Origin: Escherichia phage JS10
Reading direction: 5' to 3' (one strand)
DNA: 64,000 nucleotides
Sequence record: EU863409
This document shows positions 35,532 through 37,559 of the stretch, piece after piece; the first letter of the stretch is position 1; the number at the start of each line of letters is the position of its first letter. The notes under the pieces were generated by a model, which saw only the letters and a program-made list of their open reading frames with translations, searched no databases and had not been told where the DNA came from. The translations under genes were made by a program, and so were the position numbers.

Positions 35532-35595
35532 TATGCTCTCCTTCACTCCGTTGTTTTGATAGGTCTATAGTATCATATTCTACGAAAGAGTAAAC
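35532..35595 (-). promoter_or_regulatory. PeSL-like promoter cassette
   Basis: core TTGATAGGTCTATAGTATCA; -35 GTTTAC (35590-35595); hairpin degenerate. Confidence 0.5.
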
Positions 35596-35618
35596 ATCTT
35601 TTTTAAACTTTTAGAAAC

Positions 35619-35646
35619 AAAAAAGGCCCAACCTTTCGGAAGGGCC
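35619..35646 (-). terminator. intrinsic terminator
   Basis: GGCCC...GAAA...GGGCC hairpin plus U6; identical sequence repeated at 36242..36270. Confidence 0.55.
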
Positions 35647-35651
35647 TCGAA

Positions 35652-36206
35652 TCAGTTCTTGTAGAACCGGAATGGGTTCACGTGGAAGGCTAACATAGCT
35701 TTAGGGATTTTACGAGACAAAAGGCTCTTAAGCTTCCAGCCACAGTAAACGCGAAGGTAAAATGTGATTCCGCCGACCTTAAGATAAGGAACTGAAGCAA
35801 ATACACCCCAGGCATCATCATTCCACATCCACAACCAACCATGGTGGGCTTTATCAGGAGAACCTGATTCTACGTCAGGATTACCACGATAATGGAATTC
35901 CGAGCTACAATCACGGCCTAGTTTATGATAAGCAAAGTTATAAGCTTTATTTCGCCATAGCCAAGCTACTCTCTGGAGATAAACACCGCCAGGCATTTTC
36001 CTGATTTTAGCCCAACGTTTAATATGACCTTTATCGCCGTCAATTGGATTATCGTATGTCATCATCCAATCAAAACCATATGGCAATTTACCAGTCTTTT
36101 TATTATGAAAAGGAACCACAAAAGGCGCAAGGATAACGGCTAGAACCATAGAGATAAAATCTAGTGGGACCAACAGAATCCAACTCAAATATTTTAAAAG
36201 TTTCAT
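35652..36206 (-). CDS. membrane-anchored protein (184 aa), late-promoter driven
   Basis: N-terminal signal-anchor helix; TATAAATA 27 nt upstream; flanked by identical terminator hairpins. Confidence 0.5.
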   Translation of the reverse strand: MKLLKYLSWILLVPLDFISMVLAVILAPFVVPFHNKKTGKLPYGFDWMMTYDNPIDGDKGHIKRWAKIRKMPGGVYLQRVAWLWRNKAYNFAYHKLGRDCSSEFHYRGNPDVESGSPDKAHHGWLWMWNDDAWGVFASVPYLKVGGITFYLRVYCGWKLKSLLSRKIPKAMLAFHVNPFRFYKN

Positions 36207-36232: not shown

Positions 36233-36240
36233 TATTTATA
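36233..36240 (-). promoter_or_regulatory. T4-type late promoter (TATAAATA)
   Basis: Exact TATAAATA 27 nt upstream of gene 35652..36206, just downstream of a terminator. Confidence 0.5.
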
Positions 36241-36241
36241 C

Positions 36242-36270
36242 AAAAAAGGCCCAACCTTTCGGAAGGGCCT
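36242..36270 (-). terminator. intrinsic terminator after tRNA/sRNA cluster
   Basis: Same 29-bp hairpin plus U6 as at 35619..35646. Confidence 0.55.
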
Positions 36271-36279
36271 TTAACCTAG

Positions 36280-36439
36280 GGTAGCCTTGTCGGGGTTCCA
36301 CCTGCTAGGCAAGTGTTCTGTGCGCCGTTTCAGCTGTGAGATAAGGGACTTTAAGAGGAACTCATGTACTCCTTAAAGTCGGGTCTTATTCAGGGAACTT
36401 CAGTCCGACGACTTACCGGTAGCGACCCGGTTTCTTGTT
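36280..36439 (-). ncRNA. candidate structured small RNA adjacent to tRNA cluster
   Basis: About 160 nt non-coding, GC-rich inverted repeats (e.g. CTTTAAG...CTTAAAG), between tRNA-Arg and a terminator; no tRNA cloverleaf found; analogous position to T4 species 1/2 RNAs. Confidence 0.25.
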
Positions 36440-36515
36440 TGGTCGAGACAGTAGGGATCGAACCTACGACCTACGGTTTAGAAGACCGTTGCTCTTCCTT
36501 CTGAGCTATGCCTCG
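36440..36515 (-). tRNA. tRNA-Arg (anticodon UCU)
   Basis: 76-nt cloverleaf: anticodon stem ACGGT/ACCGT with loop CTTCTAA, T-arm GTAGG-TTCGATC-CCTAC, encoded CCA; unusual C1-G72 acceptor start. Confidence 0.65.
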
Positions 36516-36519
36516 TATT

Positions 36520-36594
36520 TGGCGGACATGCATGGATTCGAACCATGGACCAATTGATTAACAGTCAACTGCTCTACCACTGAGCTACACATCC
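36520..36594 (-). tRNA. tRNA-Asn (anticodon GUU)
   Basis: 75-nt cloverleaf: D-arm TAGCTCAGTGGTAGAGC, anticodon loop CTGTTAA, T-arm CATGG-TTCGAAT-CCATG, encoded CCA. Confidence 0.75.
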
Positions 36595-36598
36595 AAAT

Positions 36599-36672
36599 TG
36601 GTGGCCCTGGGTGGAATCGAACCACCATCCAGCGATTATGAGTCGCTCGCTTGACCGTCCAGCTACAGGGCC
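36599..36672 (-). tRNA. tRNA-Met/Ile2 (anticodon CAU)
   Basis: 74-nt cloverleaf: acceptor GGCCCTG/CAGGGCC, anticodon stem AGCGA/TCGCT with loop CTCATAA, T-arm GGTGG-TTCGATT-CCACC, encoded CCA. Confidence 0.75.
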
Positions 36673-36944: not shown

Positions 36945-37073
36945 AAACACCTCAAATAAAATTAAGTAAAGTAAGTTTGATTAATAGACCTTGTCTATTA
37001 TGAAAGGCTCTTTGAGGGAAGAACCTTTGGTAATAGAGGGTATTAATGATAGAGTAATAATATCACATAATTC

Positions 37074-37559
37074 TTAAAGCATATCAAGTGCTTTCACATC
37101 AGGGATTTTAATTTCTTCTTCAATAATATACAGCTTAACGTAAGAAATTACACGGATGAAATCACCATCATATTCACAAGCCATACCAAGGAGCTCAGTA
37201 AGGGCTTCATTCAAGTAGTATTCTTCCTCGTCGTCATTCAGCAAGGCTTCTAAGTCTTGGATACCGAGGGCCTTATCTAAAAATTCAGGGGTCAACTGGC
37301 CTGATTTTACACCCGATTCAATGTAGGCTATAACCAGATGCTTAACTACGTCCCATTCCGAATTACCACATTTATCCGGGTTGTTGCAATGCGAACCATG
37401 GAAAAGTTCTAGGATATATTTGTACTGTTGGATTTCATGTTCTTCTACGCCAAATACAGTCTGGGTTTTATAGTTATCGCCATCATTTTCCCAGGTTTCA
37501 ATTTCAATCACATAACCTTTAGGGATAGTTTGTCCGAATTTAATATTCATTGTGGCCAC
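37074..37559 (-). CDS. hypothetical acidic protein
   Basis: 161-aa ORF. Confidence 0.5.
   Translation of the reverse strand: MATMNIKFGQTIPKGYVIEIETWENDGDNYKTQTVFGVEEHEIQQYKYILELFHGSHCNNPDKCGNSEWDVVKHLVIAYIESGVKSGQLTPEFLDKALGIQDLEALLNDDEEEYYLNEALTELLGMACEYDGDFIRVISYVKLYIIEEEIKIPDVKALDML

Follow-up and report, generated by a model that had tools for sequence, protein, structure and literature searches.

We analysed a stretch of 64,000 nucleotides (nt) from Escherichia phage JS10 (sequence record EU863409), hereafter called the window, at a cluster of three transfer RNA (tRNA) genes and in the non-coding region that follows it. The element comprises the three tRNA genes, a gene for a conserved structured RNA, a trailer and a terminator on a single strand (minus) and with nearly no spacers. 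A segment of 701 nt around the tRNA cluster showed 99.6% identity to Escherichia phage JS98 (Dhakavirus, Tevenvirinae). The locus very probably forms the 3' end of a tRNA operon of T4 type in a Dhakavirus similar to JS98, in which the three tRNAs are followed by an ortholog of T4 rnaD, the trailer and the terminator. In the JS98 GenBank record all three tRNAs are annotated and the next ~200 nt, where rnaD would lie, are without any annotation; a review table also gives three tRNA genes for JS98 (PMC2993671). The tRNAs are already annotated, and the rnaD described here, which lacks annotation, is the ortholog of a T4 gene already known and occupies the known position in the operon. The features of the locus are:

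36599..36672, minus strand: tRNA with CAU anticodon and encoded CCA, by its sequence of the Ile2 (lysidine) type (ARAGORN; Rfam 62.6 bits)
36520..36594, minus strand: tRNA-Asn (GUU) with encoded CCA and G73 discriminator (ARAGORN; Rfam 72.6 bits; in the JS98 record)
36440..36515, minus strand: tRNA-Arg (UCU) with encoded CCA and C1-G72 (ARAGORN; Rfam 69.2 bits, zero non-canonical pairs flagged)
36318..36438, minus strand: ortholog of T4 rnaD (species 2 small stable RNA), ~121 nt (homology to T4 and RB3 rnaD; covariance model R1)
36299..36315, minus strand: trailer hairpin CACUUGC-CUA-GCAGGUG of 7 base pairs (bp) (RNAalifold on 17 distinct trailers; one GC-to-AU compensatory change)
36285..36298, minus strand: near-invariant block GAACCCCGACAAGG (alignments; mostly unpaired in the consensus fold, two weak pairs predicted)
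36242..36270, minus strand: intrinsic terminator with an AGGCCC..GGGCCU stem and U6 (fold; consensus structure with a CG/GC compensatory change)

An earlier reading of the sequence (the original prediction) had described about 160 nt of GC-rich, structured RNA behind the tRNAs, followed by a terminator. Composition (51% G+C in the 160 nt of 36439-36280 vs 39% for the window), conserved helices and the terminator agree with this description, but the region is not one single element: it is made up of the 121-nt rnaD homolog, a 17-nt hairpin and a 14-nt conserved single-stranded block.

The rnaD ortholog and its conserved fold

The segment 36318-36438 aligns to the annotated rnaD of RB3 (KM606994) and T4 (MT984581) with 78-80% identity over ~120 nt; blastn against T4 rnaD gave an E value of 2.9e-19 with 77.8% identity over 117 nt. 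The synteny is kept, as the gene lies at the same site directly 3' of tRNA-Arg(UCU), on the same strand and 5' of a conserved trailer and terminator. Relative to T4 rnaD the 5' core (~45 nt) is near-identical, with one covarying position different, the 3' core (~19 nt) is identical and the predicted fold is the same. In contrast, the apical hairpin is unrelated to the T4 sequence (JS98 type) and the 3' end reads CACAG instead of the CACCA of T4 and RB3. The trailer follows rnaD directly in the window, whereas T4 and RB3 have an AAUUAU spacer and rnaC at this point. A small stable RNA like the T4 species 1/2 RNAs had been proposed for this region; homology bears this out for species 2 (rnaD), whereas species 1 (rnaC) is absent from the window. 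In T4, RNAC and RNAD are late-accumulating RNAs, of which RNAC has been probed by northern blot (PMC9697503), and the roles of both are unknown (PMC3014915).

We aligned 31 distinct rnaD homologs from 40 loci (GenBank phages, IMG/VR and metagenomes; alignment A2) and derived a consensus structure with RNAalifold. The structural elements are, all on the minus strand:

36415..36431: P1, a 5-bp hairpin ACCGG/CCGGU with the near-invariant 7-nt loop GUCGCUA (RNAalifold and pair counts)
36320..36412: long arm (RNAalifold and pair counts)
36412-36406 with 36327-36320: P2, which encloses the invariant internal loop
36405-36400 (GACUGA) and 36331-36328 (GAAA): internal loop, invariant
36399-36396 with 36335-36332: P3, with compensatory changes
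36392-36386 with 36344-36337: P4, with compensatory changes
36345..36385: apical hairpin, hypervariable, here of the JS98 type (alignment A2)

rnaD is a conserved, structured, phage-specific RNA consisting of a 5' hairpin and a long irregular arm, and its helices covary. For the 22 pairs of the consensus, 98.1% of the alignment cells are paired; shifting the partners by 1-3 columns lowers this to 28-51%. The score for covariation was 0.135 vs 0.051 in shuffled alignments, and none of 500 shuffles reached 0.135. Double changes occur in five pairs, namely the closing pair of P1 (AU in 20, GC in 8 and GU in 3 sequences, the remaining four P1 pairs being invariant), one pair of P3 (UA in 22, AU in 4) and three pairs of P4; the compensatory changes in P3 and P4 are UA/AU, GC/AU, UA/GC and AU/UA. 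P2 and P3 contain invariant G-U pairs, which are compatible only with the minus-strand RNA. An apical hairpin was predicted in all five variants folded, weakly for one type.

Mean pairwise identity is 97% each in the 5' core (alignment columns 6-50) and the 3' core (columns 108-126), above the 76% of the linked tRNA-Arg, and the unpaired core residues (GUCGCUA loop, GACUGA/GAAA internal loop and CCC/CAC) are essentially invariant. In contrast, the apical region shows a mean pairwise identity of 63% and falls into at least four unrelated sequence types, each spread over Tequatrovirus, Mosigvirus, Gaprivervirus and Dhakavirus.

rnaD was found in every locus examined. In four of these (L017, L018, L020 and L038, from Mosigvirus, phage F2 and PinkRuby; locus positions ~352-706) an open reading frame (ORF) of ~345 nt for a hypothetical protein lies between tRNA-Arg and rnaD, so that fusion of rnaD to the tRNA is not obligatory. 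The covariance model R1 gave one match in the window (128 bits, E 7e-30), accepted three more T4-like contigs and rejected ~700 kilobases (kb) of unrelated viral sequence. With filters off, R1 detected no rnaD within 3 kb on each side of tRNA-Arg(UCU) in Gelderlandvirus STML-198, Jiaodavirus UTI-K4, Tegunavirus TG1 and KVP40. A search of IMG/VR with a 14-base core motif returned ~90 chance loci, none of which was accepted by R1. Rfam searches over rnaD revealed no match at E<=1 in T4 rnaD and none at E<=10 in the window, and no family other than tRNA reached its gathering score over the rnaD and trailer region. A host origin of rnaD was rejected, since rnaD and the trailer had no match at E<=1 among 5,426 E. 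coli genomes.

Several known motifs were compared with rnaD. Judged by sequence, the picture for a kink-turn at the invariant GACUGA/GAAA loop is mixed: the tandem GA/GA and a covarying stem on the non-canonical side are present, but on the non-bulged strand two additional A residues precede the closing helix, which departs from the canonical layout, and neither a canonical kink-turn nor a loop E matches cleanly. The T4 sequence reads CUGAUG...GAAAC and in this recalls a hammerhead; the idea was rejected, as the base that precedes GAAA covaries with the N of CUGANG, contrary to a hammerhead core, and Rfam is silent. A function as a CsrA sponge was rejected because the GGA motifs have no positional conservation in alignment A2. 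On the plus strand, the complement of P1 (36415-36431) is followed by TTCTTGTTTG, and this site as a whole appeared terminator-like in the consensus scan and could stop antisense transcription or be a coincidence; as a functional terminator it was discarded, with a weak stem, an interrupted T run and invariant G-U pairs that favour the minus-strand RNA. The JS98-type apical hairpin (36346-36372, minus strand) also contains UAAGGAG, 3 nt, AUG and a 4-codon ORF (MSSS-stop), probably by chance, as this mini-ORF occurs only in the JS98 hairpin type and is buried in the stem.

tRNA genes and decoding

In the 64-kb window ARAGORN detected three tRNAs in total, each of them on the minus strand, and the three Rfam scores listed above (RF00005) exceed the gathering score of 29, with E values from 3e-11 to 6e-14. 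The tRNA models, predicted as three minus-strand genes with encoded CCA and 4-nt spacers, were accepted by both independent programs and upheld by direct reading of the sequence; the spacers are ATTT (36595-36598) and AATA (36516-36519). The order CAU-(Tyr)-Asn-Arg-rnaD agrees with the tail of the 10-tRNA cluster of RB3 type, and the CAU, Asn and Arg genes of the window are of RB3 type as well. Compared with the RB3-type cluster, three tRNAs are left here and those for Gln, Leu, Gly, Pro, Ser, Thr and Tyr are gone. In related loci with enough upstream sequence the CAU tRNA, tRNA-Arg(UCU) and rnaD co-occur, and the other tRNAs are variable, with 2 to 11 genes per cluster.

The acceptor stem of tRNA-Arg (CGAGGCA/UGUCUCG, followed by A73-CCA) pairs C1 with G72. 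This pair had been remarked upon as unusual; it is real, but 19 of 21 distinct T4-like tRNA-Arg(UCU) sequences have it, which makes it a trait of the lineage rather than a peculiarity of the gene studied here. For tRNA-Arg(UCU), at least four unrelated bodies are in circulation in T4-like phages. The gene in the window (36440-36515, minus strand) looks chimeric when compared with the loci L001, L004 and L007, with an RB3-type body and a Gaprivervirus-type anticodon stem (ACGGU/ACCGU), and all differences from the RB3 stem (AGGAC/GUCCU) are compensated.

For the tRNA with the CAU anticodon, Met and Ile2 had both been considered. A search of 5,426 complete E. coli genomes revealed, as the best full-length matches, tRNAs of 80.5% identity with a CAU anticodon, annotated by PGAP as tRNA-Ile. 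The phage tRNA and E. coli tRNA-Ile(CAU) have the GGCCC acceptor start and the GCGAC/UCGC anticodon stem in common (the K-12 tRNA reference sequences in this alignment were entered by hand). Because of these matches and common stems the gene is assigned to the Ile2 (lysidine) type rather than to Met, and it is a predicted reader of AUA; the Met half of the earlier assignment is dropped. Its acceptor stem (GGCCCUG/CAGGGCC) contains C4-G69 and C5-G68, which are reportedly determinants for TilS, and reading of AUA would need lysidine to be put on the tRNA by the host TilS. The D and T arms are unlike those of E. coli tRNA-Ile2 (ileX/ileY type).

The CAU tRNA is near-identical to that of RB3 and has only the acceptor in common with the body of T4 tRNA-Ile. 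The CAU tRNA of T4 is experimentally known as an AUA-reading tRNA-Ile. Two CAU-tRNA bodies occur in T4-like phages, a T4/Mosigvirus type without and an RB3/JS98 type with encoded CCA; a comparison (L002, positions 643-716, and L017, positions 188-261, vs 36599-36672 of the window) showed as common parts only the GGCCCUG acceptor strand and the anticodon loop.

We compared codon usage in ORFs of >=100 amino acids (aa) between the window and 50 kb of E. coli K-12. The frequencies per 1000 codons were 8.9 vs 3.3 for ATA, 6.8 vs 2.9 for AGA and 32.7 vs 14.7 for AAT. These three codons are 2.2-2.7 times commoner in the window ORFs and are all within the seven most enriched codons, which makes the proposed codon supplementation plausible. 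The tRNAs would plausibly supply decoding of AUA, AAU/AAC and AGA in an AT-rich phage that uses these codons 2-3 times more than its host.

Operon tail, loss of rnaC and transcription

A search for T4 rnaC revealed no significant match anywhere in the 64-kb window, and the rnaC homolog of ~139 nt expected between rnaD and the trailer is not found there. In the alignment with RB3 and T4, the window has a gap of ~145 nt between rnaD and the trailer, where those phages have rnaC, and the AAUUAU that separates rnaD from rnaC in other phages is lacking as well. rnaC (species 1) is present in the operon tail of T4, RB3 and >90% of their relatives. The same direct junction of rnaD and trailer was detected in ~30 of ~620 phage records, mostly Dhakavirus, and the rnaC segment is retained in the Dhakavirus-related genomes MN04 and VR25; hence rnaC was lost within the clade and rnaD was kept.

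rnaC itself may be a long-arm tRNA-like RNA. T4 rnaC has a T-arm-like hairpin motif in common with P1 of rnaD. ARAGORN reads the rnaC segment of one relative (L011, positions 980-1073) as a 'tRNA-Stop' of 94 nt that has the anticodon UUA. T4 rnaC (L015, positions 867-959) gives a weak tRNA-Sec-like Rfam match (17.5 bits vs a gathering score of 47) in which acceptor and T-arm align well, and some GenBank records label the site tRNA-OTHER or tRNA-Lys.

The trailer hairpin, which lies immediately 3' of rnaC in T4, is followed by the GAACCCCGACAAGG block and, after a short linker, by the terminator. The terminator occurs twice as a 31-nt sequence with 100% identity (35617-35647 and 36240-36270). 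The two copies bracket an ORF of 184 aa (35652-36206, minus strand) that encodes a full-length DUF7338 protein (Pfam E 4.6e-63), an arrangement suggestive of a gene cassette that was inserted between two copies of a terminator. The GenBank record of RB32 notes a '34 bp imperfect direct repeat' flanking an ORF at the same position. Directly past the first terminator copy, 26 nt before the DUF7338 start codon, lies a T4 late-promoter motif TATAAATA (36233-36240, minus strand), and an early-promoter-like GTTTAC-N17-TACTAT follows the second copy (~35570-35600, minus strand). These terminator and promoter modules resemble the 'PeSL' shuffling cassettes reported from T4-type phages.

Upstream of the tRNAs, a consensus scan and the sequence point to one further feature:

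37057..37087, minus strand: candidate promoter, sigma-70-like TTGATA-17-GATATT overlapping a MotA-box-like ATGCTTTA-N12-TATTAT

The MotA-box-like reading is our assumption from the consensus of T4 middle promoters. An ORF of 90 aa (36950-36678, minus strand) lies 3' of the candidate promoter and ends 5 nt from the first tRNA. One minus-strand transcript would probably start from the candidate promoter near 37060-37085, run through the 90-aa ORF and end at the terminator (36242), with the predicted order tRNA-Ile2(CAU), tRNA-Asn(GUU), tRNA-Arg(UCU), rnaD and trailer. T4 tRNA precursors are processed by host RNase P, RNase E and exonucleases. By analogy, host RNase P would cut the 5' ends of the tRNAs of this phage, and RNase E together with exonucleases would free the 3' ends and rnaD. 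In most relatives rnaD is followed by CG-AAUUAU, a sequence that fits the preference of RNase E, whereas this phage reads CACAGAACACUU. As AAUUAU is gone with rnaC, the rnaD of this phage may either end near 36318 (~121 nt) or run to the terminator (~197 nt).

Possible roles of rnaD

The invariant unpaired residues stand on a covarying scaffold that carries a freely varying hairpin, and this suggests a docking site or tertiary motif rather than a simple antisense seed. We tentatively propose that the core of rnaD might dock a protein or form a tertiary motif and that the apical hairpin might serve as a variable module. Going further, rnaD could be a host-range or counter-defence RNA, in which a conserved partner would bind to the invariant scaffold and specificity would come from the apical hairpin as a module under diversifying selection that is swapped between genera; this is an unlikely reading at present. 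The presence of at least four unrelated apical types on one scaffold across four genera fits it. In the T4-like phage BW-1, all lines evolved on E. coli ECOR34 acquired the same single-nucleotide polymorphism (SNP) in rnaD (genome position 164264) while their virulence rose strongly, the value on the scale used by the authors going from 0.17 to 0.98 (PMC12685909). The 'position 41' given for this SNP maps ambiguously: with counting from the 3' end it would lie in the apical hairpin, with counting from the 5' end in P3.

Several points weigh against the reading of the locus as a whole or limit parts of it. The ends of rnaD are set solely by homology to the T4 and RB3 annotations. P2 is constant in all homologs and hence without covariation support, the independent covariation events are few, and two of the P4 changes stem from one hairpin type. 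The folding energy of rnaD as a single sequence is unexceptional (z = -1.4). Part of the rnaD set was gathered with patterns that demand the conserved core, so that the measured invariance is inflated. Matches to the promoter consensus are no commoner than in shuffled sequence. The codon comparison is crude, with ORF-based calls, one host region and an enrichment of just 2-3 fold.

The 160 nt could be a mere 3' trailer or spacer of the tRNA operon that acts in processing or termination at most, any stable fragment being a by-product. T4 mutants that lack the tRNA region grow on laboratory hosts, and the sister RNA rnaC was lost here with no obvious harm. Decades have passed without a function for the T4 species 1/2 RNAs (PMC3014915). 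A spacer would nevertheless hardly be expected to keep a core at 97% identity next to a tRNA-Arg that is swapped among types of 39-76% identity, to have covarying helices or to be retained despite the ~345-nt ORF after tRNA-Arg and despite the deletion of rnaC; with the convergent SNP and the rise in virulence of BW-1 on ECOR34 (PMC12685909) also against it, we regard this explanation as improbable. Much less likely still is a leader function, in which rnaD and the trailer would act in cis as an attenuator or riboswitch for terminator read-through into the DUF7338 gene. A structured RNA immediately 5' of a terminator and a gene, and the otherwise unexplained conserved unpaired GAACCCCGACAAGG block, would suit such a leader, but most phages have the 139-nt rnaC inserted between rnaD and the terminator, the downstream gene varies (DUF7338 here, e.8 in T4), DUF7338 has its own TATAAATA late-promoter motif past the terminator, and Rfam detected no riboswitch.

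We consider it similarly remote that rnaD is a degenerate or unusual tRNA, either a pseudo-tRNA or a tRNA-like RNA, even though P1 (CCGG-GUCGCUA-CCGG) resembles the T-arm of T4 rnaC (CCGGG-UUCGAAU-CCCGG), R1 weakly matches tRNA T-arms in other phages and T4 and RB3 rnaD end in CACCA. ARAGORN made no call and Rfam found no tRNA match over rnaD even at E<=10; the covarying structure has a hairpin and a single long arm and forms no cloverleaf. A CCA-ended, tRNA-like rnaD was rejected on two further grounds: a T-arm would not be placed 5' of the closing helix as P1 is, and the 3' CCA is unconserved, most relatives having CACCG or CACAG (CACAG here). That the stretch codes for a small protein is the least credible of the alternatives. 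Several GenBank genomes place short coding sequences (CDSs) over rnaD or rnaC, and a 46-aa ORF lies on the opposite strand (36364-36504). Yet the homologs are 122, 123, 125, 127 and 129 nt long, with differences of 1, 2, 4 and 6 nt that are mostly not multiples of three, and owing to this frame-breaking variation a small ORF over rnaD was rejected. In addition, the centre is replaced by unrelated sequences that keep the hairpin potential alone, the helix changes are compensatory, the plus-strand ORF overlaps tRNA-Arg, and in T4 the product is known to be an RNA.

E. coli offers a parallel for a stable RNA that comes from a tRNA transcript, as RtT RNA (tyrT operon, RF00391) is freed from the 3' trailer. 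The parallel is a functional analogy only; rnaD has no sequence or structure match to RtT RNA, hence the two are not homologous.

Nothing in these results overturns expectations and a T4 specialist would not be surprised by them; we regard the finding as sound and useful rather than striking. New are the covariation-supported fold of rnaD, its covariance model and the description of an invariant core with a hypervariable tip. In JS98-type genomes and many T4-like deposits rnaD is blank or lies under spurious 'hypothetical protein' CDSs, which the covariance model would correct, and the alignment could seed an Rfam family, none of which exists. For the function of the T4 species 1/2 RNAs, a question that dates from the 1970s, handles for experiments are provided by the clean deletion of rnaC in one clade, the presence of rnaD in all loci examined with a core better conserved than the adjacent tRNA, its hypervariable apical hairpin and the lack of an E. 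coli counterpart. The loss of rnaC with retention of rnaD is a natural demonstration that rnaC is dispensable.

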